DNA of 57,500 nt from a virus (IMGVR_UViG_3300044252_000013:1-57500); one strand, 5' to 3'. Positions 15,870-45,901 are shown, numbered from the stretch's first letter. The notes: generated by a model from the letters alone, not told the origin. Made by a program: numbers and translations.

Positions 15870-16255
15870 TTGCCCGCGACCTTCTTCATCACGTCAGCGC
15901 ACATGCCGTTGATGTGCTTGGTGACGCTCGACATTTCGGCAATCTGCATGTGTGCGAGTTTGCCCTGCTCGCGGATGGCGGCGGCGGCTTCGCTCAGCAG
16001 CTTCATGCTGGCGGCGGCTTCATCCAGTGAGGCTTCCAGTTTGTTGATGCGGTCCTTGACCTCCTCACCCATCACTTCGAACGCCTTGGCGGCGGCTTCG
16101 TACTGAGCGCGCACGGCGTCGGCTGACATCTTGCCGAGGTTGTCGAGGTTGGCGGGTTCGTTCTGGATGGGCACCAGCTTCGGCTGATGCATGTCATCCA
16201 CCAGCCGGTCGATATCGACAACGGCGCGGCGGGCGATGGCGGTGGGTTCAGTCAT
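15866..16255 (-). CDS. Hypothetical coiled-coil protein
   Basis: Helical Ala/Glu-rich ORF coupled to neighbours. Confidence 0.6.
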   Translation of the reverse strand: MTEPTAIARRAVVDIDRLVDDMHQPKLVPIQNEPANLDNLGKMSADAVRAQYEAAAKAFEVMGEEVKDRINKLEASLDEAAASMKLLSEAAAAIREQGKLAHMQIAEMSSVTKHINGMCADVMKKVAGK

Positions 16256-16568
16256 GGTCTCGCTCCTTCAGGTAGCGTTGGTGATAGGTGATGCAGAGGG
16301 CGAACGGGTCTTTCACGCCCCGGTCAGTCCACCATTGAAGTTCGTTGTGTTGATGCTGATCCATGTGACACCAATGGTTCAGCGGCATGGCCCAGCGGTC
16401 ATCCGGTTTCCCGTAGCCGCTCTCCTTGTCGTACTCCAGTGAGCGCGAGCGCAGATGCGCCGCGTCACATGGAGGTCCCCGAAAGCAGCCGCACGCACAT
16501 CGCTGTTCGCGCAGCCACTTCAAGTAGTTGGGATCACGCAGTCGTGGTCGGCGTTGCCTCAGCGGCAT
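16248..16568 (-). CDS. DUF968-like HNH-type nuclease
   Basis: YLKWLREQRCAC...DAAHLR...KPDDRWAMPL..WCH..QH. Confidence 0.75.
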   Translation of the reverse strand: MPLRQRRPRLRDPNYLKWLREQRCACGCFRGPPCDAAHLRSRSLEYDKESGYGKPDDRWAMPLNHWCHMDQHQHNELQWWTDRGVKDPFALCITYHQRYLKERDHD

Positions 16569-17575
16569 TACTTGCGCTTGCCTTTCGGCTTGGCAGCACG
16601 CGCTTCGCTGTGGTGGACTTCGCCTTCGCCACCGGCTTCAGCTTCGCCCTCGCCGCGCGCGGCAGCTTCTCGGGGAGCAGCTTCGCCCACTCCTTGAGTG
16701 TCGATGCCAGCTTCTCCAACTCCCCGCGCGTGCTGATCGTCGTCGCTTCGATCAGCACCGAGGTCCTGCCCTCCTTCGAGGTCAGGCTTACGCTCGCTTC
16801 CGTCATGTTCCGCCTCCTTAGTGACGACGCCGGGGTTGGCCTCGCCTTCTATAATCGAATTGACCTTGGTCGCATCGAAACTCTGATTGCCCGCCCGCGC
16901 CTTCTTGGCTTCTTCAAGCCGCGCTTGGAAGTTCGTGACCGGAGTGACGTCCTGCATCGGCGGGGCGCTTTCCAACTCCTCAGGCGTGTAGGCACCGAGA
17001 AGAACGTCTGACGCGAACAGCCGCGCCCATTGCCGTGACGCCGAGTAGAACATTTGCACTTCGGGATTGCTGTCCCAGAGCGGTGATCCCTTGACGTACT
17101 TCACGTTGTCCTTGGTGACGTGACCGGGGTGCATCCTGCTCAGCGGCTCGCTGATGTATTCGTGCGGCTTCTCCTCACCGTTGAAGGTGCCCCAGACCTT
17201 GCAGCGCCGCTCAGTGCCTTCACCGAGGATTTCGTAGCGCAGGCGTCCCTTCAGCGGCGCGTTCTTCTCGATCACCGCATGAAGCAACTGGCTCTCGAAG
17301 CCGATGCGATCACCGCCGCGCGGGACGTAGGATTTGTTGATCACCGACATAATCGGCATGCCCCACTCCAGCGCCTGCATGCAGAGCGCGTAGACCACGC
17401 CGGGGTTGTCGCGGCAATGCGCGGGCACCGCCACCATGCCGCGCGCGAGCCTGAGGCTGATCTGCTCAAGGTCGTTCACCGACTGGATCACGATGCCGCC
17501 GAGGGTCGTGCCAATCTCAATGCTGCGCGCCTTCACCAGTTCAGTGCGCTTCTCGACTTCTGCTGCGTCAACCAT
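16568..17575 (-). CDS. recT: RecT-like single-strand annealing protein
   Basis: VPAHCRDNPG..YALCMQALEWGM...ESQL...SPLW..PEVQMFY...WARL...LLGAYTPEEL. Confidence 0.75.
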   Translation of the reverse strand: MVDAAEVEKRTELVKARSIEIGTTLGGIVIQSVNDLEQISLRLARGMVAVPAHCRDNPGVVYALCMQALEWGMPIMSVINKSYVPRGGDRIGFESQLLHAVIEKNAPLKGRLRYEILGEGTERRCKVWGTFNGEEKPHEYISEPLSRMHPGHVTKDNVKYVKGSPLWDSNPEVQMFYSASRQWARLFASDVLLGAYTPEELESAPPMQDVTPVTNFQARLEEAKKARAGNQSFDATKVNSIIEGEANPGVVTKEAEHDGSERKPDLEGGQDLGADRSDDDQHARGVGEAGIDTQGVGEAAPREAAARGEGEAEAGGEGEVHHSEARAAKPKGKRK

Positions 17576-19835: not shown

Positions 19836-19990
19836 CGCTCGCGGACCTTCTTGATGAAGGCGAGGAAGGCATGCACCACCGCGTCCTCCAGAAAGACTTC
19901 GTGCCTGACGCAGCCCCGGTCGGTGTAAAGCCTGAACTGGTAGCCATCGAACTCGGCGTACAGCCCGTCACCCAGATAGGTTTCCATCAT
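19832..19990 (-). CDS. Hypothetical protein (52 aa)
   Basis: METYLGDGLYAEFDGYQFRLYTDRG, read manually; coupled start and stop. Confidence 0.6.
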   Translation of the reverse strand: MMETYLGDGLYAEFDGYQFRLYTDRGCVRHEVFLEDAVVHAFLAFIKKVRER

Positions 19991-20931
19991 GTCGCAAGTC
20001 CTTCACGCTCAAGCCGCGCCTTCACCCGCGCGCGCTCGTCATTCGAGATGCCCATCGTTTCCGGCTCGTCCTCACCCGGACCCGGCCAGCGACCCTCAGC
20101 CAAGCAGAGCGCAATCTTCCGCAGCGCCCATCGGTTCTGACCGTTGCCGTTCTTGAGGTCCTCGTCGGTCAGCCTCACCGCGCGGGCGCAGTAGGGATTT
20201 GCCGTTTCGATGAACATCAGCCAGAACGATGCGAACGGGATTTCGGTCAGGATTTGCTGCGCGACCTCACCGACCAGCGCGCCCTGCTGATTGTAGCCGT
20301 AGGCGCGGATGGAGTATTGCAGCGCGGGCGTTGTCACGTCAGCGGCGGTCTTGAGGTCAACGTAGTCGCCCGAGGCGGTCGGGATCACGTCAGGGCGAAC
20401 CTTGATCCACAGCCCCGTCTCCTGATCCTTGATGAAGCCCGAGACCTCGACCGCGCCTTCCAAGATGCCGTTCTGAACGAACGAGTTGGCTTGCATCGAC
20501 CACGCCATCGCCTTGATCGCGTCGAGTTCTTTCGCGGTGACGATGGTGCGCCCCAGCTTCGCCTGCTCAGCATTCCACTTCTTGCAGACCTCAGAGCCGT
20601 TGTGCCACGGCTTCTCCTCAGCGGTTTTCTTATCGCGGTAGATCAGCGGCTGCTGGATGAATTTCTGATTGTAGTTGTCCTCACCGAGAAACAGGTGATG
20701 GGCTGCGGAGCCGAGGATCATGTTGCGCGAGCTTTCGCGCGGCTCAGCCTTCGGGTTTTCGCACCACTCCGAAAACATATGCGCAGCCGACTTCGACCAG
20801 CACGTCCTCAGGTTGGTGCTGCTGACGGCGGGGCCTTCGCACATGCCTGCCGAGTGATACGTTTCGATGGGCACGCCCGAATACCAACCCGGCTTCGTGA
20901 TGGGCTTGCCATTCCACTTGGTGATTTTCAC
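19987..20931 (-). CDS. RecE/exonuclease VIII-like PD-(D/E)XK nuclease (DUF3799)
   Basis: YH...VSSTNL, GSAAHHLFL, EVS...KVRPD...VDLKT, YGYNQQGA. Confidence 0.88.
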   Translation of the reverse strand: MKITKWNGKPITKPGWYSGVPIETYHSAGMCEGPAVSSTNLRTCWSKSAAHMFSEWCENPKAEPRESSRNMILGSAAHHLFLGEDNYNQKFIQQPLIYRDKKTAEEKPWHNGSEVCKKWNAEQAKLGRTIVTAKELDAIKAMAWSMQANSFVQNGILEGAVEVSGFIKDQETGLWIKVRPDVIPTASGDYVDLKTAADVTTPALQYSIRAYGYNQQGALVGEVAQQILTEIPFASFWLMFIETANPYCARAVRLTDEDLKNGNGQNRWALRKIALCLAEGRWPGPGEDEPETMGISNDERARVKARLEREGLAT

Positions 20932-33799: not shown

Positions 33800-34192
33800 A
33801 TGAGCAAGAGCAAGCACGCTATCCATCGCGCCAAGGTCAGGCGGCAGGCCATCGCCCTCATGGGTGGGCGCTGCCAGCGTTGCGGCTTCGATGATGAGCG
33901 TGCGCTCCAGTTCGATCACGTCAAGCCAGCACGCCGAGGGCTGAACGGGAAGCGCAAGAGTGGTGAGACAGGCATCGCTACGCACAGGGCTATCGTCAAT
34001 GGCATGCGTGAGGGCTATCAGCTACTCTGCGCCAACTGTCATGCGATCAAGACGAGAGAGGATGACCCTGATGGATCATCATCTATGAACTGGTCGAGGT
34101 CAGAGGCTCTCGCCTCTCGTCTGCGTGAGGCGCATGGCAATGGCGAGGCGACGATGCGATCAGATCAGATTGATATGGCGCTTGATCTATGA
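33800..34192 (+). CDS. HNH endonuclease (terminase-associated)
   Basis: GGRCQRCG....LQFDHV...YQLLCANCHAIKT. Confidence 0.9.
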   Translation: MSKSKHAIHRAKVRRQAIALMGGRCQRCGFDDERALQFDHVKPARRGLNGKRKSGETGIATHRAIVNGMREGYQLLCANCHAIKTREDDPDGSSSMNWSRSEALASRLREAHGNGEATMRSDQIDMALDL

Positions 34193-34226
34193 ACGAAATC
34201 AATCGGATGCACCCCCACCCCCCTTT

Positions 34227-34305
34227 GGGTCCTACCGGGCGTGAGGGGAAGTGGGGGGACCGCGCGACCGCAGGCCTTTCGCATATTTCGGTTTTGATTT
34301 TTAAG
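34227..34305 (+). other. Candidate lambda-like cos site (cosQ GGGTCCT plus cosN)
   Basis: GGGTCCT at 34227-34233, 23 nt, then GGACCGCGCGACCGCAGGCCTTTCGCATATTT resembling lambda GGGCGGCGACCTCGCGGGTTTTCGCTATTT; next to HNH. Confidence 0.6.
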
Positions 34306-34342
34306 GCTTTGATTGCAAACGGCAAATCTGAGAGGCGGGGAT

Positions 34343-35695: not shown

Positions 35696-36058
35696 CTTGG
35701 GGAGGGGCGGGACATGCACTTCGTGATCGACCGCTTTGTAGAGCGAGCGGTACTCGACCGGCACGCCTTCGCGCTGAGCGGCGTCGATGCCCGCGCGCAT
35801 CCCGGCTGAGATGCCCCGGTCAAAGTAGACCACCGAGGCGTCGGCTATCTCCAGCCACGCGAAGCCTGAGGCGATGCCCCACTCGCGCTCAGCCGGTTCT
35901 TGATCGTTCAGCACTTGGGTGTAGAGCAGATGCGATGCGAACGGTGCCTCGCCGCGCCTGAGGCAATCGAGCAGGCAGCGGCGCGCGTAGCGGCGGTTCA
36001 AGAACCGTTGCCACGGTGAGGGTGAGCCGTAGGGGCTTTCGAGGATCACGCGCTTCAT
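35525..36058 (-). CDS. DUF7768/nucleoside 2-deoxyribosyltransferase-like protein
   Basis: MKRVILESPYG...CL.RGEAPFASHLLYTQVL.D...ER..GI..G.AWL...VVY.DRGIS.GM; GGAG RBS. Confidence 0.7.
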   Translation of the reverse strand: MKRVILESPYGSPSPWQRFLNRRYARRCLLDCLRRGEAPFASHLLYTQVLNDQEPAEREWGIASGFAWLEIADASVVYFDRGISAGMRAGIDAAQREGVPVEYRSLYKAVDHEVHVPPLPKSRSGGRSTLDITLLFQHGKALPAGLMYRRVSGDVLPSGHNDIDIGWIDFDGEAPAP

Positions 36059-36213
36059 TTCTCTCCTCCTGCTTTCGCACCGTTGCGTCTGCCCCGGCTG
36101 ATGTTCAATCGGGCTTCGTGCGTCCTGACGCCCGCCCCGTTCTTGTTGCCCTTGAGTGCCGCGCTGATCTTGGCGCGGCGCTCGTCGGTGTATGGCTTGC
36201 GCGGCGGCTTCAC
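36055..36213 (-). CDS. Small NUMOD3-motif DNA-binding peptide (52 aa)
   Basis: YTDERRAKISAALKGNKN...THEARLNIS, read manually. Confidence 0.55.
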   Translation of the reverse strand: MKPPRKPYTDERRAKISAALKGNKNGAGVRTHEARLNISRGRRNGAKAGGEK

Positions 36214-36407
36214 TTGGCTTGCTCCGCGAGAGCGGCGCGGATGATGCCCGGCGTCTGATGTGCGCTGTCAGGAACATCCGGCATCCTGATGTATCCCAAC
36301 TCAATGCCATTGGTGATGAACTGGTCAGCGCGGCGCAGCGCCGCCTCCAGCACTTCGTTGCGTGCTCTCAGTTCCGCGATGTATTCGTGGTCGTCGTGGC
36401 TGCTCAT
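36210..36407 (-). CDS. Hypothetical protein
   Basis: MSSHDDHEYIAELRARNE, coupled. Confidence 0.5.
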   Translation of the reverse strand: MSSHDDHEYIAELRARNEVLEAALRRADQFITNGIELGYIRMPDVPDSAHQTPGIIRAALAEQAK

Positions 36408-36598
36408 TTGTCTTGCTCCGGTGCGAGGGCGGCGCGGGCGAGGTCGAATGCGTCGGGTGCCCCGCCTAAAATCTCCCGCAGCGCCGCCTCCAGCGCCTCG
36501 ATGCGGGCGTCGGCTTTGTCCAGCTTCACTTCCAGCGCCTCGTTGCTGGCTTCCAGCCTGCGCACGTTCGCCTGTTCGTGCCATCGCTCTTCGCTCAT
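36404..36598 (-). CDS. Hypothetical coiled-coil protein
   Basis: MSEERWHEQANV...ARIEALEAALREI. Confidence 0.5.
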   Translation of the reverse strand: MSEERWHEQANVRRLEASNEALEVKLDKADARIEALEAALREILGGAPDAFDLARAALAPEQDK

Positions 36599-36852
36599 TG
36601 CTTGCCCTCCGGTTCTGCGTAGCGACCTTCCCAGCGCGCGACCAACTCCTTCAGCGCGACCAGCACGTTCTCGCGCTGACCGTTGCCGATGTAGTTGATG
36701 CGCCCGGTGCCGGTGATGTCCTCGTTGAAGCGATAGGTCAGCAGCGCGAAGCCGATATGCTTCGGGCCGGTGCCGTTCAGCGCGGTGTCGATGGTCTTGG
36801 CGATGGCGTTCATCATCGCCTTCTGCTCCGGTGAGATTTCGTCGTGCTTCAT
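36595..36852 (-). CDS. Hypothetical phage protein
   Basis: GFALLTY.F...GRINYIGNG.RE...ALKE...RWEGR. Confidence 0.65.
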   Translation of the reverse strand: MKHDEISPEQKAMMNAIAKTIDTALNGTGPKHIGFALLTYRFNEDITGTGRINYIGNGQRENVLVALKELVARWEGRYAEPEGKQ

Positions 36853-37601
36853 GGCTTCCTCCCTGAGCCGGGTGCGATATGCTCCCTGACCCGACCGTCG
36901 CTACCGTAAACCGTGATGGTCCCGTCTGACCCGGTGGTTGCGCGCCCGGTGACCCGCCCCGTCTTGGCATCGTATTCGGTCGCGGTGCCGCGCGCGTAGT
37001 CGCTGTGAATTTGCGCAACGGGTCTGCCGTCAGGACCATAGACCACCCGCGATTGCGCCTGAGCCTCAGGCGCGCCCAGCAGCGCGGCGGCGCAGAGGAG
37101 GGCGGCAACCCCCGCCCCCAGCTTGCGCGCGCCGCTGAGCAGCCACGCCTGCCCGTCAGCGAGGCCAAGTTCGACCAGCTTCGGCAGGGTCTTTCGGGCA
37201 TGCCAGCCGTCCAGCAATCCGTAGAAGCCGTTGGCGATGATGGCGCGCTCGACGTACTCCCGGCGGAAGGGGACGCCGAAGTAGCCGGTGATCCGCTCCA
37301 TGCCCCCGCCGCTGATCGCGGCGTCGAGCGTCGGGTCGATCACCAAGCCGTCAGGGTCAACGCACCATGCGTGATCGATGGGGATGCCGTAGACCCCGAC
37401 GACGCCTTCGGCGTAGGTGAGGTGCCGCTCGCGCAGCATCAGCAGGGTGGCGTTCTTGAAACAAGCGCCCTGCTCAGCGCGGGGTCCGGTGAAGGAGCCG
37501 GGGCCGAAGCGGTACTCCACTCCGTGCTTCAGCATGAACGCTGACATCCAGTCGCGCCCATCGGATATCTTCTGGCGTATCATGAGGTGATCACGGATCA
37601 T
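36849..37601 (-). CDS. Hypothetical protein: Cys-His protease/transglutaminase-like domain plus signal-peptide-like beta-repeat tail
   Basis: GACFKNA...Y.EG...IDHAW..D...VIDPT, then ALLCAAALLGAPEAQAQ and YGPDGR/YGSDGR repeats. Confidence 0.55.
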   Translation of the reverse strand: MIRDHLMIRQKISDGRDWMSAFMLKHGVEYRFGPGSFTGPRAEQGACFKNATLLMLRERHLTYAEGVVGVYGIPIDHAWCVDPDGLVIDPTLDAAISGGGMERITGYFGVPFRREYVERAIIANGFYGLLDGWHARKTLPKLVELGLADGQAWLLSGARKLGAGVAALLCAAALLGAPEAQAQSRVVYGPDGRPVAQIHSDYARGTATEYDAKTGRVTGRATTGSDGTITVYGSDGRVREHIAPGSGRKP

Positions 37602-38011
37602 CGGATCACTCCCTTCGGTGCGGGCTGCGGCCATCGCCAGAACTCCCTGCCGTTGAAAGATGAAATCGGGCGGGCGACCTCACCGCGCGCGATGGCGGCT
37701 TCGACATCGTTGACGCCGAGGTAGAAGGTCGCGTCAGGCACTTGCGACTTCATGAGCGGGACGTTCTCCCCGGCATCATCGATACCGTAGAGGACGCTCA
37801 CCCCGGCGATCAGGCGACCCTTGATGCCGAAGTAGCTCTGCGTCATCGGGCTGGAGTAGAGGCCAAATTCATCGACCACATATCCGATGCGGGCGGCGAG
37901 CATGCCGTGATCGACGTTGCCGAGACCGGCGGCGGTCTGCGCGTCGATCAGGCTTTCGCAATCGACCGTTTCGATGGTGCGCTTCTTGGGATTGATAACA
38001 ACGAACTTCAC
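37598..38011 (-). CDS. DUF3846-like protein
   Basis: VINP..RTI...YVVDEFGL...IAG.SVLYG.D..GE. Confidence 0.55.
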   Translation of the reverse strand: MKFVVINPKKRTIETVDCESLIDAQTAAGLGNVDHGMLAARIGYVVDEFGLYSSPMTQSYFGIKGRLIAGVSVLYGIDDAGENVPLMKSQVPDATFYLGVNDVEAAIARGEVARPISSFNGREFWRWPQPAPKGVIR

Positions 38012-38196
38012 TTGCGTTCTCCATTCATGAGCAGGACGAGTTGACCGACCGTGCCGTGCCAGTAGCGACCGACTTCGCGAAGGTATCGCTCAGCCTTGTA
38101 CCGGGTGTCATTGTCGGGGATGACTTCGATCAGCGCGGCGGTGCCGAGAGGTATCTCGTATCCGTCAGGGTCGATTTCGTAGACGTGAACCTTCAT
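38008..38196 (-). CDS. Hypothetical protein
   Basis: MKVHVYEIDPDGYEIP, coupled. Confidence 0.55.
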   Translation of the reverse strand: MKVHVYEIDPDGYEIPLGTAALIEVIPDNDTRYKAERYLREVGRYWHGTVGQLVLLMNGERK

Positions 38197-38579
38197 GCGC
38201 GCGCCCTCCATTCGAGCAAGCCGTCCTTGTTGGGCTTCACGACCGGCGCGTGATATTCGCCGTGGCTGATGTAGTAGGCTGCGCGCCTGCGCCTGCCGTC
38301 GCACATGACGAAGCCGTTGACCCGCTCATAGAAGCCGCGATCAACTCCTTCGAGCCGGTCGAGCGCGGCGAGCATCTTGGTGTCCTTGCCGATGTCGAAA
38401 AGCTCGCCCTTCACGCGCCGCGCCTTCCTGCCGTCAGAGGGGCGCATGATCGGGAAGCCGCCGACATCGATCATCTCGAAGGTGTTGTCGGTGACCGCCT
38501 CACCGAGGTAGGTCGCCTTGGCGATGAAGCCGTGGTTGCTGCGGTTGCGTTGCAGGGTGCCGTAAACAAAAACTTTCAT
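38193..38579 (-). CDS. Gamma-glutamylcyclotransferase (GGCT/AIG2-like, YtfP type)
   Basis: KVFVYGTLQR...NH, GGFP, VKGELF...LDRLEG...YER. Confidence 0.9.
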   Translation of the reverse strand: MKVFVYGTLQRNRSNHGFIAKATYLGEAVTDNTFEMIDVGGFPIMRPSDGRKARRVKGELFDIGKDTKMLAALDRLEGVDRGFYERVNGFVMCDGRRRRAAYYISHGEYHAPVVKPNKDGLLEWRARA

Positions 38580-38629
38580 GGTCGTTCTCCGTGAGGGTGG
38601 TGCCCCGCCTTCCGGCGGGGCGGTGAGGG

Positions 38630-39418
38630 TCAGGCGACTTCGCAGACCCGGCAATCCGGGTCGGTGCAATCCCGCTCAGGCTGCGGGTAGAGGCGCGCCG
38701 CATCTTCGCGGGCGCGGCGGCGGGCGCGGCTCTGAGCGGTGCCCCGCGCGGTGCCGAGGTCGCGCTCAGCGACCGGAGCCGCCTCAGCCGGTGCCTCGCC
38801 CCAAGGCAGCCCGTAGTGATCAGCGCAGATGGGTCCGTAGCCGACCGCCGTCGAGCGGTCATCGCTGAGCGCGCGCATGCAGAAGCAGCAGGCTCCGTGA
38901 AGGTGACCGAAGGCGGCAGCCACTCCCGCCGGGTCAGCGGCGAAGGCGCGTAGTTTGTCCGCGAGGTCTGCGGGCGCTGAGCGGCTGGGAGCGAAGGAGC
39001 CGTCGAGGGTGACCCGGCCAAACCAAGTGCGCTCGTCCCGCCCGCGCTGAGCGTTGAAGTGCTTCTCGATGCCGGTCACGTTCAGCGAGCCGGGGTGAGC
39101 GGCGCGCGCTCCAGCGATGCTGACCCGGAAGCCGTCGAGGACAATCGCGGGGTACTTGAGGTGAGCGCGGGCGCGGTTGAAGAGCGCCATGATCGGGGTG
39201 AGGTCACCGACCGCTTCAGCGGCTGCTGCCGGGGCGCGAGCCGCCGGGGCAATCGCGAAGAGGCGCGTGCCGTAGGTGCCGCTGCCGAGCGGCATGCCGA
39301 GGGTGAGGGTCTGCGTCTCGCCGTTGCGCTTGGTGACGGTCAGCACCGACCCGGTGGCTGCGTTCGCTTCGGTGGTCGCGATGACCCATCGTCCGTTTAA
39401 TTGCTTGAAGGCGTTCAT
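38630..39418 (-). CDS. DUF6011-domain protein
   Basis: C-terminal GACCFCMRALSDDRSTAVGYGPICA. Confidence 0.75.
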   Translation of the reverse strand: MNAFKQLNGRWVIATTEANAATGSVLTVTKRNGETQTLTLGMPLGSGTYGTRLFAIAPAARAPAAAAEAVGDLTPIMALFNRARAHLKYPAIVLDGFRVSIAGARAAHPGSLNVTGIEKHFNAQRGRDERTWFGRVTLDGSFAPSRSAPADLADKLRAFAADPAGVAAAFGHLHGACCFCMRALSDDRSTAVGYGPICADHYGLPWGEAPAEAAPVAERDLGTARGTAQSRARRRAREDAARLYPQPERDCTDPDCRVCEVA

Positions 39419-39467
39419 GGTCTGCTCCTTGCCCCTGCTGGGCTTGTGCGGGGCGGCGGCTGCCGCT

Positions 39468-39499
39468 CCTACTGGCTCAGCCCCGCGCGGGGGCGGGGC
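39468..39499 (-). repeat. Intergenic hairpin element, copy A
   Basis: cctactggctcagccccgcgcgggggcggggc. Confidence 0.75.
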
Positions 39500-39522
39500 C
39501 GGTGCCGGGTGGCGCGTGAGGG

Positions 39523-39738
39523 TCACGCGCTCATGTAGGTCTCGCTCGTCGGGTCGAGGTAAATCGGGAGGACGTACTTGGCGGGAGCCGGGTCGACCAC
39601 TTCGCCAGCCTGATCAGCGGCGCGGCGCGCCCCGGCTTCGGTCTTGTATTCTTTGCGGCTGCGCGTGCCGCGACCGAGGTAGCTGATGTAAAAGCGGCAG
39701 CCGTCGTTCCTGATCGCTGCGGTGGTGGGGCGGGTCAT
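39523..39738 (-). CDS. Hypothetical protein
   Basis: GGAGACGACCATG start; EYKTEAGARRA. Confidence 0.65.
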   Translation of the reverse strand: MTRPTTAAIRNDGCRFYISYLGRGTRSRKEYKTEAGARRAADQAGEVVDPAPAKYVLPIYLDPTSETYMSA

Positions 39739-39777
39739 GGTCGTCTCCGTCTGTGAGCGGGTGAGCCGGGTGGCTCC

Positions 39778-39808
39778 CCTACTGCCTCAGCCCCGCGTCG
39801 GGCGGGGC
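39778..39808 (-). repeat. Intergenic hairpin element, copy B
   Basis: cctactgcctcagccccgcgtcgggcggggc, near-identical to copy A. Confidence 0.75.
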
Positions 39809-39832
39809 GTGAGGGGCGCGCTGGGCTGAGGG

Positions 39833-40201
39833 TCAGTCCATGTAGTGACCGATCACATCGGCGCTGACCGTGATCGCCGCGTCGGGGAAGCGGCTGCGCG
39901 CGAAGGCTTCCGCCTCAGCGAGGGTCGCGAATTGCGAGGCGACCGCCTGATAGTTTTTGACGACCTCATATTTGACGACCTTCATCTCGGGGATCAGGCA
40001 CTCGGCAGCCAGCCCGGTGAAGCGCCAGCCGCGAACGCTGACCTCGTCCTGCTTGCGGGTGATTTCGCCCGCGAGGGCTTTCTTGATCAGGCTGCTGGCC
40101 TTCGACTTCGAGGTGTCGAAGGGCATCGCCTCGCCGGTCAGGCTGGCGAAGTAGGCGCGCTGCTTCGGGGAGGCGCGGAATTGGCTGGGCGTGCGGGTCA
40201 T
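39833..40201 (-). CDS. Hypothetical protein
   Basis: ASPKQRAY..SL...KSKASSLI motif; GGAGCCGACCATG start. Confidence 0.7.
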   Translation of the reverse strand: MTRTPSQFRASPKQRAYFASLTGEAMPFDTSKSKASSLIKKALAGEITRKQDEVSVRGWRFTGLAAECLIPEMKVVKYEVVKNYQAVASQFATLAEAEAFARSRFPDAAITVSADVIGHYMD

Positions 40202-40253
40202 GGTCGGCTCCGGTGGTTCAGGCTGCCCCGGCGGGGCGGCTCAGCAAGGCAAT

Positions 40254-40294
40254 AACGAAGCCCACATATGGGCCTGCCTGCTCAGGATGTGAAG
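40254..40294 (-). promoter_or_regulatory. Early promoter, CTTCAC-N17-CCATAT-GTGGGCTTCGTTA
   Basis: Matches the alphaproteobacterial sigma70-like CTTGAC-N17-CTATAT with one mismatch per box; repeated at 43319-43359. Confidence 0.7.
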
Positions 40295-40513
40295 CCCCCC
40301 TTGGCATAATTCTCAAAATAAAACCGCCCCGGTTCCAGCCCCCTCAGGGGCGGCTCAGGGGCGGCTCAGGCTGCCGGGTGGGACGACCGTCCCAGTTGAC
40401 CCGCGCGGGCGCGCCCTGAGCCGCCTGTGCGGCGGGGCGGGGGCGGCTCAGCCGGGTGGCTGCCCCCGGCTGCCGGGTGGCTCAGCCGCCACCCGGCGCT
40501 GGAGGGCTTCGGC

Positions 40514-40771
40514 TCAGGCGGCAGCCGGGGCTGACCGGCGGCTCCGGTACCGGCGGCTGACCTCAGCCATCGCCAGCCCGATGAAGGGCGGGACCTCGTT
40601 GACCCGCGCCTCCCAGTTTTGAAGTGCGGTGCGTGAGCAGCCCAACGCGAGAGCGGCTTCGCGCTGCGTGAACTTCAGAGCGGCTCGCCATTCGATCAGC
40701 GCGTCGGCTGAGGTCGGCGGCGGCGGAAGTACTTCTCGCGTTGTCATGGTCAACTCCACTTCGAAAGGCAT
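40514..40771 (-). CDS. XRE-type HTH protein
   Basis: LIEWRAALKFTQREAALALGCSRTALQNWEA...IGLAMA. Confidence 0.8.
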   Translation of the reverse strand: MPFEVELTMTTREVLPPPPTSADALIEWRAALKFTQREAALALGCSRTALQNWEARVNEVPPFIGLAMAEVSRRYRSRRSAPAAA

Positions 40772-40802
40772 CCCCGGCATTCCACCGGGGCTGCGGTCTG
40801 AT

Positions 40803-41036
40803 CTACTTCGGCTGGTGACCGAAGGGCGAGAGGTCCATCGCGAGCGCCGCCATCGCGAGTGCGATGTGCTTCGGGATGGGGCGGTGACCCTGCTCCCAGT
40901 CGAGCAGTTCGCTCGCGCTGACGCCGAGGGCGTCGATGGCATCCTGAGGCTCGTAGCCCATCCGCTCACGCCATAGTTTGATCACGTCAGGCGAGATGGT
41001 CTGCGCGGGCTTCTGGCTCTTGGGTTCGTTCTTCAT
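40803..41036 (-). CDS. XRE-type HTH protein (paralogue of its neighbour)
   Basis: IKLWRERMGY...DAIDALGVS...LLDWEQG..PIPKHIALAMA. Confidence 0.8.
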   Translation of the reverse strand: MKNEPKSQKPAQTISPDVIKLWRERMGYEPQDAIDALGVSASELLDWEQGHRPIPKHIALAMAALAMDLSPFGHQPK

Positions 41037-41094
41037 GGTCGGCTCCTTATGAGGCGAGGTGCCCCCGGCGGGATTGCCGGGGGCGTTGCTCAGG

Positions 41095-41376
41095 TCAGTT
41101 CAGCGAGGCGTCGGTGACGAGCGCAATCGGCTCGCGCTGCACGGGGGCTTCGCCCGTTTCGAGGTAGCGCTTCACGTCAGCGTAGCTCTCGGTGACGACG
41201 TAGCCGCCGCCGTCCGTGAAGGTCAGCCGCGTCCCCGGCTTGCCATCGTTGCGGGGATAGAAGTTGCGGATGGCTGCGGGGTTGATGCTGACCGGAGCGG
41301 TCGGCATCGCATCGCCCTCGTCCTCACGGTAGGCGCGGGTGAGGAGCTTGGTCAGGTGGATCAGGTTCATAGTCAT
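41095..41376 (-). CDS. Hypothetical protein (FlbD-like beta motif)
   Basis: LIHLTK...PVSINP..I...TRLTF.DG..YVVTES..DV. Confidence 0.6.
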   Translation of the reverse strand: MTMNLIHLTKLLTRAYREDEGDAMPTAPVSINPAAIRNFYPRNDGKPGTRLTFTDGGGYVVTESYADVKRYLETGEAPVQREPIALVTDASLN

Positions 41377-41443
41377 AGCGTTGTCCTTTCTCGGACGTTG
41401 TGGGCTGATCAATTTCCGGGGCCAGCCCATCCCGGTCGTTCTG

Positions 41444-41472
41444 ATATGGGCAAGAACTTCTCGAAGGGGAAG
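41444..41472 (-). promoter_or_regulatory. Early promoter, CTTCCC-N17-CCATAT
   Basis: Same -10 box and 17-nt spacing as the other two copies. Confidence 0.55.
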
Positions 41473-41484
41473 TCTTACTTCACA

Positions 41485-42153
41485 TCAATCTCCGTAGGTG
41501 ATCATCGCGCGGCGGTAGAGGTCGAGGTCGAACTGCGGCTTCGTCTCCTGAGCTTTGCGCTTCAGCTTTCGCGATGCCTCGTCGGCTGCCTGAGCCGCGC
41601 GGCGTTGTTCGCTGAGCTTCTGCTTCGTCGGCTGCTTGCGAACTTCGCTGGGGCGCGGCGCGAAGGTCGGGCGACCGTTGCGGCGTAGTCGCTGGCGCTC
41701 GACATGCGAGGGCGCGTTGTCACGGTGGCTCGCTTCGAGCGCGGCGGTCAGCGTTGCCTGCGGCAGTTGGAAGTCGCGGAAGCCTTGCTTGATCACGCCG
41801 TAGTAAGTCTCGCTGGGCGGCATGATGCCTTCCGAGTTCATGACGTAAATCAGAAGGTCCTCATGGGTCACGCCGTCGAAGTCGAAGGGCGCAATCGCGA
41901 TGTACTCCTTGCGATACACTTGGCCGTCGATGCCTTCGTAATGGTCGAGCGCGGCTTCGCACTCCGGGGTGAGCTTCCAGACCGCGCCCTGCACTCCGTC
42001 ACCGGGCGAAGGGATGATGTCAGCCACTCCCCGGAAGACCAGCTTCCAGTCATCCAGCTTCATCGCGCCGACCGATTTCGCGGCGGGGCAGCGGCGAGCC
42101 ATCTGGCTCAGGTTTAAGTTTGATCCGTATGCGAAGTAGAGGGTCATGGTCAT
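41485..42153 (-). CDS. Gamma-glutamylcyclotransferase with basic C-terminal extension
   Basis: LYFAYGSNLN..QM..RCP, LVFRGVADI, V.GAVW, LDHYEG, PPS..YY..I..G. Confidence 0.92.
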   Translation of the reverse strand: MTMTLYFAYGSNLNLSQMARRCPAAKSVGAMKLDDWKLVFRGVADIIPSPGDGVQGAVWKLTPECEAALDHYEGIDGQVYRKEYIAIAPFDFDGVTHEDLLIYVMNSEGIMPPSETYYGVIKQGFRDFQLPQATLTAALEASHRDNAPSHVERQRLRRNGRPTFAPRPSEVRKQPTKQKLSEQRRAAQAADEASRKLKRKAQETKPQFDLDLYRRAMITYGD

Positions 42154-42188
42154 GGTCCTTGTCGGGTGAGGTCAGGCGGGGGCTGCCG

Positions 42189-43268
42189 TTAGGCAGCCCA
42201 TGCGATGGCGTTGTTGCTGAGGTTCGCGGTGCGCTCCGTGATGTAAGCGCGCTCCGCGTCGGTGAGGCTCAGGAGGTCAGCGAAGCCGTTGATGCTGATC
42301 ACCAGTGCGCTGGGGGTCTGCGCCTCAGCGCGGGCGGCGAAGTAGCGAACCTCACGACCCGTGCGCTGGCTCACCACCGTCAGCCCAGCCGAGCGCGCCT
42401 GAGCGGGGACGCTGACCGAAGGCCAGTTCATCTCGGCGCAAATCTCGCGGCCAGTCACGCCCTCAGCGCGCAGGAGCATCTCACCGATGCGGTGAGCCTT
42501 GGTGCCCCGGCGGGCGCGGTTCAGCGGCTGGCTGCTGACCGCCTGACCGAAGTTCAGGTCGGTGCGCTGAGCGGCCAAAACCATCTTGCGGCAAATCGAA
42601 ACCCACATCGCGGTCTTGGTCGCGTCGGTCGTACCCGAGTGCTGCCTGAACTCCACCGTGCGGTGACGGTTGAAGGCGGCGAGGTTCAGCTTGTGATAAC
42701 GCTGCTCACCCGCGCGGCTCGCGCTCCTGATCGCCTCAGCCAGCGCGCTGACGCTGTGAGCGTTGTTGATGGCGGCTGCGCTCACCGAGGCGAGGCTGCG
42801 GCAGAAAACGTTCGTTGACCGGCGGCGGCTCACCGGCATCATGCCGTCGATGATGCCCTCGTAGGCTTGGTAAATCCTGACGAGGTTCTTGAAGAAGTCG
42901 AGCGGCTGACCGGCGGCTCCGACATGGACGTGCAAGCCGCAATCCTTGCTGACCGTTGCGCCGAGGTCGGTGAGGGCGTCACAGACCGTCTTGATTTGGC
43001 GGTCACCGTTCTCGCCCGAAATGATCGGGCTGACGAACTCCGCGCCGCGCTGATAGTCACCCAGCGAGCCGTCCGTGGTGACCTTCCAAGTCGTGATGGT
43101 CTGGTGAGCGGCGTTGTAAGGAATGACCGGGCAGGGCGCGCCGAGGCGGCTGCTGACGGCAGCGGCTCCCTGTGACATGCTGGTGCCGTGCGGCAGGTAG
43201 CATTCGAACTCCAGCCCGAGGGTCAGGGCGTTCAGGCGGTCAGCGGTCGGGGCGGTCAGGGCGGTCAT
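42189..43268 (-). CDS. Putative amidoligase (COOH-NH2 ligase type 2) with DUF3489-like HTH insert
   Basis: GLEFE, WKVTTDGSL, AEFVSPI, CGLHVHVG, RYHKLNL, TVEFRQHSGT; then GTKAHRIGEMLLRAEGVT..EI...NW. Confidence 0.88.
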   Translation of the reverse strand: MTALTAPTADRLNALTLGLEFECYLPHGTSMSQGAAAVSSRLGAPCPVIPYNAAHQTITTWKVTTDGSLGDYQRGAEFVSPIISGENGDRQIKTVCDALTDLGATVSKDCGLHVHVGAAGQPLDFFKNLVRIYQAYEGIIDGMMPVSRRRSTNVFCRSLASVSAAAINNAHSVSALAEAIRSASRAGEQRYHKLNLAAFNRHRTVEFRQHSGTTDATKTAMWVSICRKMVLAAQRTDLNFGQAVSSQPLNRARRGTKAHRIGEMLLRAEGVTGREICAEMNWPSVSVPAQARSAGLTVVSQRTGREVRYFAARAEAQTPSALVISINGFADLLSLTDAERAYITERTANLSNNAIAWAA

Positions 43269-43318
43269 GGTAGGCTCCGGGTCGGTGCCCCCGGCGGGGG
43301 CGGTGAAGGCAACTCATT

Positions 43319-43359
43319 AACGAAGCCCACATATGGGCCTTTCAAAGCGGAATGTGAAG
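43319..43359 (-). promoter_or_regulatory. Early promoter, CTTCAC-N17-CCATAT-GTGGGCTTCGTTA
   Basis: Shares taacgaagcccacatatgggcct and atgtgaag with 40253-40294. Confidence 0.7.
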
Positions 43360-43401
43360 TCCTGCTTGGCAAAATAAAGCAGAAAGTTTGGAGGCTAAAT
43401 T

Positions 43402-44013
43402 ATGCCCGAAGATCAAACACTTAACCCGGAAGCCGGGATTGCCGCCGATGCCCACCCGCGCGGACCCCTGCTCACCACCGAGCAAGCCGCCCGCCTGATC
43501 ATGAAGGGCGGGGAGCGGGTCAGGCAATTGACGAAGCAGGGCTGGATCACAGCCTCAGGTCCCGCGAACGATAAGCGCTACCGATTGCTCGATGTCGTCC
43601 AAGGCTATATTCGTTTTCGAGATGACGAAGACCGGCGCGCAAATAAAACCGCCGCGCACACTCGCATCACCGACGCGCGCTCACGCGAAGTGGAGTTGAA
43701 GAACGCCCAGCGCGAAGGTCGGCTGATCGAGTTGGAAGAAGCGCTCGCGGTGATCGAAGCGGTGGTCGCTTTATTCCGACTGCAAATTTCAGGGTTACCA
43801 GCGCGGGTCACCCGTGATCTACAGTTCAGGCGAACGATAGAAACGGCTTTGCATGACATCCTTGACGCCATCGCTGATCTTGCCGCCGAGAGAGCAAAAG
43901 CTCTGGGCGCGCGTCGAGCTTCTAACGCGCCCGTCCAAACCAATGGAGCCGGATCAATGGGCGGTGACGAACAGGACGCATCCGCAGACCTCAGGCGTGC
44001 CGGGTCCGCGTGA
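43402..44013 (+). CDS. Terminase small subunit (Nu1-like)
   Basis: Winged-HTH ERVRQL...YRLLDVVQGYI, ELKNAQREG.LI, LPARV; precedes GpA. Confidence 0.85.
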   Translation: MPEDQTLNPEAGIAADAHPRGPLLTTEQAARLIMKGGERVRQLTKQGWITASGPANDKRYRLLDVVQGYIRFRDDEDRRANKTAAHTRITDARSREVELKNAQREGRLIELEEALAVIEAVVALFRLQISGLPARVTRDLQFRRTIETALHDILDAIADLAAERAKALGARRASNAPVQTNGAGSMGGDEQDASADLRRAGSA

Positions 44014-45901
44014 CCCGTATCTGACGCCGTACATTGTTGAGCCGGGGCGGATGATCGCCTCAGGAGATTACAAGCGGGTCGTTCTGGTGTTCGGCGCGCA
44101 GACCGGCAAGACCGAGTTGATGCTCGACGTTGCCGGTCAGCGCCTCGACCAACGACCGGGTCCGATTTTGTATGTCGGTCCCAACAAGCAATTCCTCAGC
44201 GAGCAGTTCGAGCCTCGCGTGATGTCGCTGCTTGATGAAGCGCCGACGCTGATGGAGAAAGTTATTCGCGGCAAGCGGATGACCAAGACCCGCAAGATGG
44301 TCGGCGGCGTCCCGTTCAGGCTCGCGCATGCCGGATCATCCAGCGCGCTGAAATCTGATCCCGCAGTACTCGCGCTGGTCGATGAGTACGACGAGATGCG
44401 CGACAACGTGAATGATCAGGGCGGGCCTCTCGGTCTGGTCGAGCGGCGCGGCGATACCTACGCCGACTTCGTTTGCGTCGTGACGTCGACCCCGAAGAAG
44501 GGGCGGGTCGGTGCCGTGCAGGACGTGACCTCAGGACTGCACTTCTGGGACGCGGCTCCGACCGAGGACATCGAAAGCCCCATCTGGCAACTCTGGCAGC
44601 AGGGCACCCGGCATCACTGGTGCTGGCCGTGCCCTCAGTGCGGCGAGTACTTCGTGCCGCGCTTCAACCTCGTTCGCTTTCCGCTGAAGGCATCGCCGCT
44701 CGAAGCGGGGCGCGAGGCGTTCATCGAATGCCCCGCCTGTCATGGCGTGATCGAGGAGCGTCACAAGGAGACGATGAATGCGAACGGGCGCTTCGTCGCT
44801 CCGGGTCAGTCGGTTGACGCCAAGGGAAACATTCATGGTGCGCCGCGAGAGAGCCTGACCGCATCCTATTGGGTGAGCGGGCTGGCCTCGCCGTTCGTCT
44901 CCACCCGTGACCGCATCTCGACGCTGGTCGAAGCCCAGCAGTCGGGCGACGACGCGATGGTGCAGCAGGCGATGAACGCGGGCTTCGGTGAACTCTACTC
45001 GCCCGGTGGCGGTGAGGTCCCCGAGTGGGTCGAGATCAAGGAGAAGTCCCGAGCCGCGACCTACAAGCGCGGCGAGGTGCCCGAGGACGTTTTGTATCTG
45101 ACGCTGGCTTGTGACGTTCAGAAGCACTCCATCCCGTGGGTGATCCGGGGCTGGGGCGCGCGCGCTTCGTCATGGCTGATCAACTACGGCTACCTCCGGG
45201 GCGAGACTGCTGAGGAGGAAATCTGGGAAGCGCTTGGTGATCTGGTCTCGACGCCCATCGACGGCATGCCGATCAAGCTCGCTTTCGTGGACAGCGGCTT
45301 CCGACCCGGCAAGACCGACACCCTTCCGATCAATCGCATCTACGAGTTCTGCCGCCGGTTCATGCGGCGGGTCCGACCGACCAAGGGCGCGTCGTCAGCG
45401 ATGCGGACCCCGCTGATCTTCTCGAAGATTGAAGTCAGCCGGAAGGATGGCAAGGCGGCGAAGTACGGGCTGGACCTCGTTCGCCTCGACACCGATCACT
45501 GGAAGTCATGGGTGCATGAGCGGCTGCGATGGCCACCCGATCACATCGGCGGCTGGCATGTGTTCAACGGCGTCGATGACGACTACTGCCATCAGCTTGT
45601 TTCGGAAGCGCGGCTGAAGCAGGCGTCGGGCAAGGTCGAGTGGGTTCAGCGAAGCCGCGACAACCACTTCTTCGACTGCGAGGCGATGCAGGCGGCGGCG
45701 GGGTACCTCCTGAACGTCCAACGCATCCCATTGCAAAAAACCCAAATCCGTCCTACGGATGGCGTCGGCAGGCAGCCGGAAACCCCACCCGAGGTAGTCG
45801 CACCACCAATCGAAGCACCGCCAATCCCATCCGCCGTTGTCGCAAGGTCAGGACGGAGAGGGGGCAGGCGCATCATTCGGTCGAACTATCTGGGGGCATG
45901 A
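43853..45901 (+). CDS. Terminase large subunit, GpA family
   Basis: AQTGKTE, VDEYD, STP, WPCPQCG..F, CDVQ, DSG, NHFFDCE. Confidence 0.95.
   Translation: MTSLTPSLILPPREQKLWARVELLTRPSKPMEPDQWAVTNRTHPQTSGVPGPRDPYLTPYIVEPGRMIASGDYKRVVLVFGAQTGKTELMLDVAGQRLDQRPGPILYVGPNKQFLSEQFEPRVMSLLDEAPTLMEKVIRGKRMTKTRKMVGGVPFRLAHAGSSSALKSDPAVLALVDEYDEMRDNVNDQGGPLGLVERRGDTYADFVCVVTSTPKKGRVGAVQDVTSGLHFWDAAPTEDIESPIWQLWQQGTRHHWCWPCPQCGEYFVPRFNLVRFPLKASPLEAGREAFIECPACHGVIEERHKETMNANGRFVAPGQSVDAKGNIHGAPRESLTASYWVSGLASPFVSTRDRISTLVEAQQSGDDAMVQQAMNAGFGELYSPGGGEVPEWVEIKEKSRAATYKRGEVPEDVLYLTLACDVQKHSIPWVIRGWGARASSWLINYGYLRGETAEEEIWEALGDLVSTPIDGMPIKLAFVDSGFRPGKTDTLPINRIYEFCRRFMRRVRPTKGASSAMRTPLIFSKIEVSRKDGKAAKYGLDLVRLDTDHWKSWVHERLRWPPDHIGGWHVFNGVDDDYCHQLVSEARLKQASGKVEWVQRSRDNHFFDCEAMQAAAGYLLNVQRIPLQKTQIRPTDGVGRQPETPPEVVAPPIEAPPIPSAVVARSGRRGGRRIIRSNYLGA

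Follow-up and report, generated by a model that had tools for sequence, protein, structure and literature searches.

Repeated stem-loop and start-codon modules between the genes of a cassette-like block in an uncultured phage

In T4-type phages, according to the parts of the published accounts drawn on here, early promoter stem-loops (PeSLs) consist of a stem-loop, a sigma-70-like early promoter (-35, 17 nt, -10) close behind it, and then a Shine-Dalgarno sequence and a start codon (PMC4122927); they are repeated in hyperplastic genome regions, next to insertions and deletions (indels) (Comeau et al. 2014, PMC4122927; also Arbiol et al. 2010, PMC2839356). Cluster K mycobacteriophages carry start-associated sequences (SAS) with the 13-bp consensus GGGATAGGAGCCC, located 3-8 bp upstream of start codons (Pope et al. 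2011, PMC3203893). In the portion of that report which deals with them, extended start-associated sequences (ESAS) are 17-bp imperfect inverted repeats with a 4-13-bp spacer, situated directly upstream of the SAS; an inverted repeat with a variable spacer precedes about half of the SAS, the function of which is given as unknown (PMC3203893). The morons of lambdoid and temperate phages are characterized, in the excerpts of the literature used here, by a promoter and a terminator of their own and by a G+C content that deviates from that of the surrounding genes (Juhala et al. 2000 via PMC10914365; Cumby et al. 2012, PMC3594210). Here we describe a comparable arrangement in the viral contig IMGVR_UViG_3300044252_000013, the 57,500 nucleotides of which were analyzed in full (hereafter, the window): a block of nine genes, separated by G+C-rich stem-loops and stereotyped start contexts, in which close relatives carry different genes between conserved spacers.

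The block extends leftward on the minus strand from 43268 to 38193, divergent from the terminase genes, and its genes are denoted A to I in that direction. The eight junctions between A and I each measure 35-312 nt and contain a G+C-rich stem-loop, whereas the 57 same-strand junctions outside the block have a median of -1, 40 of them falling below 30 nt, as determined from rough gene calls by a crude caller that missed gene E and the small terminase gene (TerS). Downstream of I, genes overlap or abut without hairpin spacers. Given that the closest large terminase (TerL) of a cultured phage, Microcystis phage Mae-JY30, is 49.7% identical and that a nucleotide search of 50,697 phage records yielded a sole match covering 154 nt of DUF6011 at 69% identity, no cultured phage is close and no annotated relative was usable. 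The relatives compared here comprise soil contigs from IMG/VR, contigs from soil and rhizosphere metagenomes, and one prophage-like locus of a Bradyrhizobium isolate, which lies in a 411-kb contig and encodes a TerL that is 83% identical. After duplicates were merged (L102 with L001; L002, L047, L106 and L107 with L105), five distinct close lineages (L001, L104, L105, L103 and L108), at approximately 80-95% nucleotide identity, cover parts of the block.

These lineages differ in the genes that occupy the same slots. Between P2, the second of two promoter-like modules described below, and gene H, the window carries F and a G of 71 amino acids (aa), L104 carries F and a 90-aa G, L001 lacks F and has a G of about 129 aa (126-129), and L105 also lacks F and has a 115-aa G with yet another N-terminal part. 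In L108, an unrelated open reading frame (ORF) of 110 aa directly precedes H, and in L103 two unrelated ORFs, the first of 104 aa and the second of 57 aa, precede H, with a P2-like promoter module between them. The slot between H and I is empty in the window and L104, and contains one small ORF (N1) in L105 and four (N1-N4) in L001. Altogether, F, N1-N4, X1, X2 and Y1 are present or absent among related phages. Gene G itself varies: a C-terminal core (containing YYISYLGRGTRSRK) is conserved, each of four lineages has its own N-terminal part (window 39738-39680; L001 4158-4360; L104 652-720; L105 7545-7690), and all forms begin with ATGACC right after the common ribosome-binding site module, which suggests that N-terminal parts were exchanged in frame at the start codon. 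Comparison of ten variable ORFs with Pfam and PHROG produced no family match except for one sub-threshold similarity to Lar, a restriction-alleviation protein. The ORF in question (L105 9721-9906, downstream of I) encodes a 61-aa zinc-ribbon-like protein (E 0.0034, below the Pfam cut-off), and this weak match is the only anti-defence hint among the variable genes.

The spacers that bound these genes are assembled from a few recurring parts (all coordinates below are on the minus strand unless indicated otherwise). Type-2 spacers, F|G and G|H, consist of TGACCCTCA, a 7-bp stem-loop, CTGAGSCAGTAGG, a second small hairpin and GGAG-N-GACCATG. In F|G (39739..39832), the corresponding elements are TGACCCTCAG, the hairpin GCCCCGC-CCGAC-GCGGGGC (39808-39790), CTGAGGCAGTAGG (39790-39778), the second small hairpin and GGAGACGACCATG; in G|H (39419..39522; folding z-score -2.41), they are TGACCCTCAC, GCCCCGC-CCCCGC-GCGGGGC (39499-39480), CTGAGCCAGTAGG (39480-39468), the second hairpin GCGGC-AGCC-GCCGC and GGAGCAGACCATG. 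Type-1 spacers, namely H|I and, more loosely, C|D, consist of the stop codon, ACC, an 8-9-bp stem-loop, ACCACC and GGAG-N-ACCATG. H|I (38580..38629; z -2.10) comprises TGACCCTCACC, the hairpin GCCCCGCC-GGAA-GGCGGGGC (38621-38602), ACCACCCTCAC and GGAGAACGACCATG, and its loop varies in close relatives (GGAA, GGTCA, TGACC, CTGACC). C|D (41037..41094; z -3.65) contains the 9-bp hairpin GCCCCCGGC-AATCCC-GCCGGGGGC (41084-41061), which is a seed of the covariance model R1 introduced below, then ACC and then GGAGCCGACCATG. The direct repeat CCCTCAC that flanks the H|I hairpin was considered as the target-site duplication of a small palindromic element, an interpretation rejected on the strength of L105, which has no upstream copy.

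At A|B, the 8-bp hairpin GGGCTGCC-TAAC-GGCAGCCC (42180..42199; z -3.45) holds the stop codon of A in its loop, and L002 keeps this stem with TGA in the loop. B|C (41377..41484; 108 nt; z -2.19) has imperfect predicted hairpins and no GCCCC-type stem. D|E (40748..40802) contains the hairpin CCCCGG-TGGAATG-CCGGGG (40790-40772), followed by GGAGTTGACCATG; this hairpin corresponds to a 40-nt indel (joint 40757>40798), is missing from L001 as well as from contigs of runs X2 and X6, and is replaced in L105 by an AATCCC-loop hairpin. The tails of the window hairpins read ACCACC, TGAGG, CCGCC and similar; the stems are G+C-rich like those of canonical intrinsic terminators but, except in the E|F element, are followed by no canonical U-tract.

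The recurrence of these parts by far exceeds the expectation from dinucleotide-preserving shuffles. The pattern GCCCC-N3-16-GGGGC has 12 matches in the 57.5-kb window compared with 2.13 expected (none of 100 shuffles reaches 12), nine of them within 38602-43301. GGAG-N2-4-ACCATG has 8 matches (0.31 expected), seven of which are block gene starts, including that of E (40745-40757), the eighth being located outside the block at 16253-16266. TGACCYTCA also has 8 matches (0.72 expected), among them the stop contexts of H (38624-38632), G (39517-39525) and F (39827-39835). Thus, the sequence-only reading of this region, which had listed GCCCC...GGGGC hairpins at 38602, 39480, 39790, 40225, 41061 and 43287, GGAG...ACC-ATG starts at six positions, TGA-CCCTCA stop contexts, and two copies of CTGAG[C/G]CAGTAGG, is borne out for each hairpin and each start, for the stops of H, G and F, and for both copies, which lie at 39790-39778 and 39480-39468, each 3' of a hairpin, and belong to one repeat family. 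Perfect hairpins were found at further junctions as well (42199-42180, 40790-40772, 40497-40472 and 40472-40449), and those with G+C-rich stems of at least 7 bp number 9 in the 5,209-nt block compared with 4 in the other 52,291 nt. The start context from -4 to +9, GACCATGACCCGC, is common to unrelated ORFs, a degree of sharing that appears to exceed the needs of translation. In the window, C, F, G and H end in TGA with a C directly after it (TGACC...), as do H and N1 of L001; TGA-C is the leakiest stop context in E. coli.

Comparison of the spacers between lineages shows that they are at least as conserved as the flanking genes: in L104, L001 and L105, respectively, G|H is 90, 97 and 84% identical to the window, compared with 84, 87 and 82% for G and 82, 94 and 77% for H, and H|I is 96, 92 and 85% identical. 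Even where they flank unrelated genes, spacers show 75-97% identity to one another, both within the block and from phage to phage. The window H|I spacer is the same as the spacer 3' of N1 in L001 and L105 (with other loops), so that one type-1 spacer is found after H in two lineages but after N1 in another two, and the window differs from L001 and L105 by the absence of exactly one unit, a type-2 spacer plus N1. The spacer of L108 is chimeric, with an F|G-like 5' end and a G|H-like 3' end. In a metagenome contig (one contig, depth 2.5), the joint 39436>39757 marks the loss of G between two type-2 spacers, and the metagenome contigs also include a 57-nt insertion at the start of G. The paralogy of the spacers, the chimera and the precise spacer-to-spacer deletions make the stronger case for recombination in the spacers. 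With five close lineages carrying different genes between retained spacers, the block is cassette-like, as the sequence-only reading had proposed; gene content among the relatives is not fixed and the spacers are conserved.

One hairpin family is recognizable by a fixed loop, AATCCC or ATTCC, often with the 3' flank ACCACC, on stems that differ (GCCCCCGGC, GCCGCGCGGC, GGCGCGCGCC, which includes a sense-strand G.U pair, and AAAACCCGCC). The AATCCC loop and the ACCACC flank are kept over at least four unrelated stems in phages whose A proteins are only 35-40% identical to that of the window, and sense-strand G.U pairs are present in the hairpins of L027 and L007. The covariance model of this family, R1, was built from 8 seeds (9 before L005 and L006 were dropped), MAFFT having misaligned flipped or different stems. 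In the R1 alignment, 108 of 108 cells are paired (100%) and 5 of the 8 pairs change on both sides, which none of 500 shuffles reaches, although these values overstate the covariation, since hairpin formation was the basis on which seeds were selected and the model itself shaped the alignment. The stems do covary, covariation being one of the checks proposed in the sequence-only reading. A search of 1.36 Mb with R1 gave 19 matches at E <= 1, comprising the seeds, duplicates, type-1 spacers of the H|I type (E 0.1-0.76) and one hairpin from the 5' untranslated region (5'UTR) of L006 (E 0.8); in these 1.36 Mb no new members were found at E < 0.01, and the type-1 spacers of L005 and L006 were not recovered. 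In the type-2 spacers, the second hairpins keep an ATCC(C) loop over GAAGC/GCTTC, GCAGC/GCTGC, GGGC/GCCC and GATGC/GCATC stems, and the outer stem is nearly invariant in the close clade. Identity of the hairpins with host repeats of the REP (repetitive extragenic palindromic) type was considered and rejected, R1 having only one weak match in the 8.4-Mb Bradyrhizobium genome (150 of 6,788 first-look candidates scored). At Rfam gathering thresholds, the whole window has no matches.

Among more distant relatives, forty-odd loci have A, B, H and C in common, but the gene order varies, C being located 3' of H in most of them and 3' of B in the window clade. The exact window motifs, unlike the architecture, are confined to the close clade. 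In 18 loci, some of them near-duplicates, the 6 kb downstream of the A start contain 86 strong hairpins in 100,972 nt, compared with 15 in 111,513 nt of structural genes. In a test of orthologues that involved no selection on hairpins (a GC stem of at least 6 bp within 93 nt after the stop codon), the stem is present in 11 of 17 distinct A sequences and in 9 of 11 C orthologues (0.8 expected in each case), compared with 5 of 37 for TerL (2.1 expected); for other genes, the result is 2/3 (H), 2/7 (B), 0/6 (I) and 2/8 (K). Several negatives under this strict filter hold longer imperfect or G.U-containing stems. The stems after the A and C orthologues are unrelated in sequence. Hairpins with at least 4 T in the next 8 nt account for 3 of 11 after A and about 4 of 9 after C, and these T-tracts are followed within 5-15 nt by the Shine-Dalgarno sequence of the next gene; the hairpins of distant relatives therefore take the position, and often the form, of intrinsic terminators within operons, and the U-tract either was lost from the window clade or was never present in it. 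In L007 (3000-9560, minus strand; A protein 54% identical), GCCCCG... stems are accompanied by the repeated tail TGGGGCGTC[A/G]GAAC and by the start context GGAGCAAGC at no fewer than four genes, which suggests that each lineage homogenises its own spacers, that is, concerted evolution within the genome.

Two copies of a promoter/5'UTR-like module, P1 and P2, precede A and F, respectively. P1 (43269..43401) occupies the divergent intergenic region between A and the small terminase gene, which starts at 43402 on the plus strand and is followed by the large terminase gene; P2 (40202..40310) lies upstream of F; and the two contain a 67-nt repeat (43309-43375 and 40244-40310) that is 78% identical. 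Each has an AT-rich stretch, TTCACA, 17 variable nucleotides and CATATG within the near-palindrome CCCATATGTGGG. By eye, the candidate -35 and -10 boxes, separated by 17 nt, are at 43358-43353 and 43335-43330 in P1 and at 40293-40288 and 40270-40265 in P2, and the conservation of the hexamers around a 17-nt spacer that differs in P1, P2 and L001 makes both modules candidate promoters. A sigma-70 and terminator consensus scan of 34000-45000 called no minus-strand promoter, and no minus-strand terminator in 38580-43300. The modules continue with the 5'UTR hairpins GCCCCC-GCC-GGGGGC (43301-43287) and GCCCC-GCC-GGGGC (40237-40225) and with the ribosome-binding sites and starts GGAGCCTACCATG (43278-43266) and GGAGCCGACCATG (40211-40199), the start context behind both being GGAGCC[T/G]ACCATG. 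A near-palindrome, GGCCCATATGTGGGC (43340-43326, 40275-40261), overlaps both candidate -10 boxes and is a candidate repressor operator.

Upstream of P2, the distal part of the E|F spacer (40311..40513; z -2.80) contains hairpins at 40497-40472 (10 bp) and 40472-40449 (8 bp) and, by eye, a terminator-like stem CCGCCCC...GGGGCGG followed by TTTTATTTT (40353-40315); the 16-nt loop of this stem exceeds the limit of the terminator scan, so that it is absent from the scan list. This stem with TTTTATTTT, directly before P2, is the only canonical-looking terminator in the block. The 12-mer CTGAGCCGCCCC has four copies around P2 (40233-40451; starts 40358, 40369, 40451 and 40244), three of them upstream of P2 and one (start 40244) in the 5'UTR, overlapping the hairpin, and occurs once more at 15770; these repeats are perhaps candidate operator or iteron sites for the helix-turn-helix (HTH) proteins encoded by D and E.

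The genome that carries the block has a G+C content of 62.6%. The window is a single contig in which bases 1-127 recur exactly at 57374-57500 (a 127-bp direct terminal repeat), and because of this exact repeat it is taken to be a circularly assembled, complete phage genome of approximately 57.4 kb (about 57,373 bp). Genes for a primase, a helicase and a ParB-methyltransferase are present elsewhere in the genome, and a scan of the window for tRNA and tmRNA found none. The genome also encodes a RecT-like single-strand annealing protein (16568..17575, minus strand; phrog_561, E 1.9e-42) and an exonuclease VIII-like protein (19987..20931, minus strand; phrog_412, E 6.2e-59), which presumably form a RecET-type recombination pair.

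As far as the portions of the PeSL literature drawn on here describe them, PeSLs resemble the modules of this block in being repeated composite intergenic elements that end in a Shine-Dalgarno sequence and a start codon (seven block gene starts here) and in occupying an ORFan-rich hyperplastic region, with an uninterrupted series of module-separated ORFs and with indels and replacements between close relatives. The E|F junction shows the full order: stem-loop and T-tract, AT-rich stretch, -35 and -10 boxes, Shine-Dalgarno sequence and ATG. However, a stem-loop before a promoter is found only at E|F, P1 having no upstream stem-loop; the seven other spacers (35-108 nt) show no -35/-10 boxes, so that a promoter is present in 2 of about 10 modules; and there is no sequence homology, the stems being GC-rich and the genome an unrelated one of 57 kb with RecT/Exo-type recombination. 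Accordingly, the analogy to the PeSLs drawn in the sequence-only reading holds for the E|F junction, which has the defining order, and fails for the other spacers, which are without promoters. The block is therefore no member of the PeSL class, but it would work alike. The joint between type-2 spacers in a single metagenome contig is compatible with the mini-circle excision of DNA lying between two tandem modules, as in PeSLs, of which it is no test.

With the SAS, in the published sections on them, the modules have in common an asymmetric, conserved, Shine-Dalgarno-bearing sequence that occurs in one orientation and is conserved among relatives. Nevertheless, the start context here is GGAG-N2-4-ACCATG, not GGGATAGGAGCCC; the stems, unlike the ESAS repeats, are perfect and 5-10 bp long, enclose loops of 3-8 nt, and are separated from the Shine-Dalgarno sequence downstream by 10-60 nt; and the modules are confined to 5 kb, whereas the SAS are described as distributed across the non-structural genome and tied to gene families, not to the exchange of cassettes. 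Like morons, as these are outlined in the sources used, the variable genes are extra and non-essential, present or absent among relatives, and accompanied by a downstream stem-loop. In contrast to morons, candidate promoters precede only A and F, eight of the nine genes have a downstream hairpin of which only that of E has a T-tract, the G+C content of the cassettes (62-70%) is not below the 62.6% of the genome, and the genes form one array rather than isolated insertions. The REP elements of E. coli operons and the hairpins of the Rhodobacter puf operon are intercistronic and mRNA-stabilising; the stem-loops of the block are similarly GC-rich, without a U-tract, and located just after stop codons within polycistronic units, but are repeated together with the Shine-Dalgarno context of the next gene and mark cassette boundaries.

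We consider it probable that the spacers serve as terminator-like punctuation of transcripts and as Shine-Dalgarno modules, and double as recombination joints. The block would then form a hyperplastic region of accessory genes in an uncultured phage, with leftward transcription starting at both copies of the promoter/5'UTR module, and each stop codon in it would be followed by a stem-loop and then by the stereotyped Shine-Dalgarno/start context of the next gene. At the RNA level, the hairpins would most likely punctuate polycistronic transcripts via partial termination or pausing, and might protect 3' ends, and 5' ends after the promoters, against exonucleases, whereby each cassette would be expressed at its own level. 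Because the spacers are repeated at 75-97% identity, they would also be sites where homologous recombination adds, deletes and swaps ORFans. The RecT/Exo pair probably uses such 50-100-nt repeats for relaxed homologous recombination, an activity that phage Rad52-like recombinases are reported, in the passages of the cited work considered here, to promote (PMC3945230). Repeats, conserved and covarying hairpins at gene 3' ends, spacer-bounded gene differences and recombinant spacers are all observed, and the window genome has the RecT-like and exonuclease genes. Thus, for the spacer-driven gene shuffling put forward in the sequence-only reading, the chimeric spacer and the spacer deletions speak in favor, and the causal role of the spacers, as well as that of RecT/Exo, is what we infer. 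The further proposals of that reading, namely early expression, mRNA processing and a host-takeover or anti-defence capture platform, gain no support from this analysis; no RNA run was listed among the public runs that contain the phage, and the variable ORFs match no family. Several observations weigh against this interpretation. Although 9 of the 15 breakpoints in homology are no more than 15 nt away from a spacer, compared with 23% expected (binomial 0.002), this statistic is built on non-independent comparisons, 3 of the 15 breakpoints are inside H and one is at the stop of I, and selection acting on the products of illegitimate recombination would by itself leave joints at gene boundaries. 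The covariation comes from hairpin-picked seeds and a fitted alignment; G.U compared with A.C at stem ends gives 27 vs 51 unembedded and 5 vs 1 embedded (small counts); and the folding z-scores of single spacers are modest, ranging from -0.8 to -3.65 with one at +0.57 (7 of 10 below -1.8, two near zero). Furthermore, the fixed AATCCC loop and ACCACC flank are unexplained by a generic terminator or stabiliser role, and the intercistronic hairpins of the window, except for the E|F element, have no canonical T-tract, so that, with no minus-strand terminator called, true termination is doubtful in the window clade. Mosaic joints at gene boundaries are a general rule in phages, as emphasized by the Hendrix and Hatfull school, and the spacers could accordingly be expression signals only, alike through descent, tandem duplication or host constraints, which do not promote exchange, illegitimate recombination occurring anywhere and selection keeping the events at gene boundaries. 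This explanation, which we regard as less likely but worth serious attention, accommodates the 4 of 15 breakpoints away from spacers, the old tandem paralogy of D and E (37% identity) and the distant hairpins, which are unrelated in sequence and therefore function without sequence identity; it accounts poorly for the 75-97% identity of spacers beside unrelated genes, the chimeric spacer and precise spacer-to-spacer deletions, the occurrence of one type-1 spacer behind H as well as behind N1 (two lineages each), and the GACCATGACCCGC context in unrelated ORFs.

A narrower proposition, which we deem unlikely, is that the hairpins are specific recognition sites, either for endonucleolytic processing or for binding of an antiterminator or regulator that controls read-through of the array: the type-1 stem with A-CCA-CC is reminiscent of a tRNA acceptor minihelix, which could make it a substrate of RNase P, and the P1 and P2 5'UTR hairpins could be nut-like loading sites. 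The persistence of the AATCCC loop and ACCACC flank over at least four unrelated stems, the ATCC(C) loop kept on variable stems in the second hairpins of type 2, the identical 3-nt-loop hairpins behind both promoters, and the single weak R1 match in the 8.4-Mb Bradyrhizobium genome, which shows that this hairpin is no common host element, fit such a role, as do the terminators directly before the next Shine-Dalgarno sequence in relatives, which therefore imply regulated or partial read-through. However, there is no Rfam family match, neither an antiterminator nor an RNA-binding protein was identified among the block proteins, the type-1 H|I loops vary in close relatives, and the likeness of ACCA to tRNA ends is a matter of general resemblance; RNase III needs longer stems than 5-10 bp, so that the stems here are too short for it. 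A bolder version, to which we assign a similarly low probability, would have a sequence-specific factor, RNase P or a phage antiterminator, cut or license each cistron at AAUCCC/AUCCC hairpins with an A-CCA-CC flank, the modules forming a RecT-run, integron-like, promoter-driven ORFan capture array without an integrase. A true integron-type system, with hairpins as attC-like sites for a dedicated site-specific recombinase, could be invoked for genes that each travel with their own downstream hairpin (C keeps one wherever it is placed) and for small promoterless ORFan cassettes downstream of a common promoter. It is nonetheless very improbable: no integrase or other site-specific recombinase was found among the nine proteins of the block, the exchange points are at stop and start codons and in linear parts of the spacers with no fixed position in the hairpin, and attC sites are 57-141 bp long with R/L boxes, compared with 13-26 nt for the hairpins here. 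Finally, chance GC palindromes and GGAG...ATG strings in a G+C-rich genome might be suspected from the modest single-spacer z-scores, two of them near zero, but such a compositional artefact is refuted for practical purposes by the shuffle counts (12, 8 and 8 matches vs 2.13, 0.31 and 0.72 expected), the clustering of hairpins in 9% of the genome, the orthologue stop test, and the conservation and covariation in relatives.

If the spacers indeed combine transcript punctuation with recombination, these findings would extend 'mobile regulatory cassettes', documented so far for T4-type phages, to unrelated, abundant uncultured soil and rhizosphere phages and to Bradyrhizobium-associated prophages. 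Five lineages with different ORFans in the same slots offer a natural test bed for the gain and loss of small accessory genes and for the use of 50-100-nt diverged repeats by RecT-type recombinases. The hairpins with a fixed loop and flank and covarying stems are a candidate new cis-acting RNA element, and with the aid of the modules the starts and stops of very small ORFs missed by gene finders can be called reliably.

The genes of the block, all on the minus strand, have G+C contents of 62.3-70.3%. A (42189..43268; 359 aa) encodes an amidoligase (PF12224) with a C-terminal DUF3489-like part; B (41485..42153; 222 aa) and I (38193..38579; 128 aa) encode two gamma-glutamyl cyclotransferase (GGCT)/AIG2-like proteins, a family that PHROGs places in the category 'moron, auxiliary metabolic gene and host takeover'; and C (41095..41376; 93 aa) has no function assigned. 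D (40803..41036; 77 aa) and E (40514..40747; 77 aa) are tandem paralogues, 37% identical at the protein level, that encode HTH proteins, XRE-like in the case of D. F (39833..40201; 122 aa), an ORFan cassette, and G (39523..39738; 71 aa), also an ORFan, belong to no family, and H (38630..39418; 262 aa) contains DUF6011 and has a C-terminal part that is variable among relatives. This C-terminal region of H (38717-38795) is a second hot spot of divergence and indels, with 3 of the 15 breakpoints and a 12-nt deletion at 38781.

Outside the block, a non-coding stretch of approximately 590 nt between convergent gene blocks (13920-14508) contains the GC-rich repeats TGAGCCGCCGGG, GCTCAGGGCGCGCC and GTCCCACCCGCC, exact 13-14-mers in common with the E|F spacer, GCCCC...GGGGC hairpins at 13966 and 14412, and TGACCCTCA at 14397-14405; this stretch may function as an origin, packaging site or attachment region. 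Two plus-strand structural genes that probably encode tail fibres contain collagen-like tandem repeats of 9 nt (Gly-X-Y) at 9300-9600 and 10784-10887.

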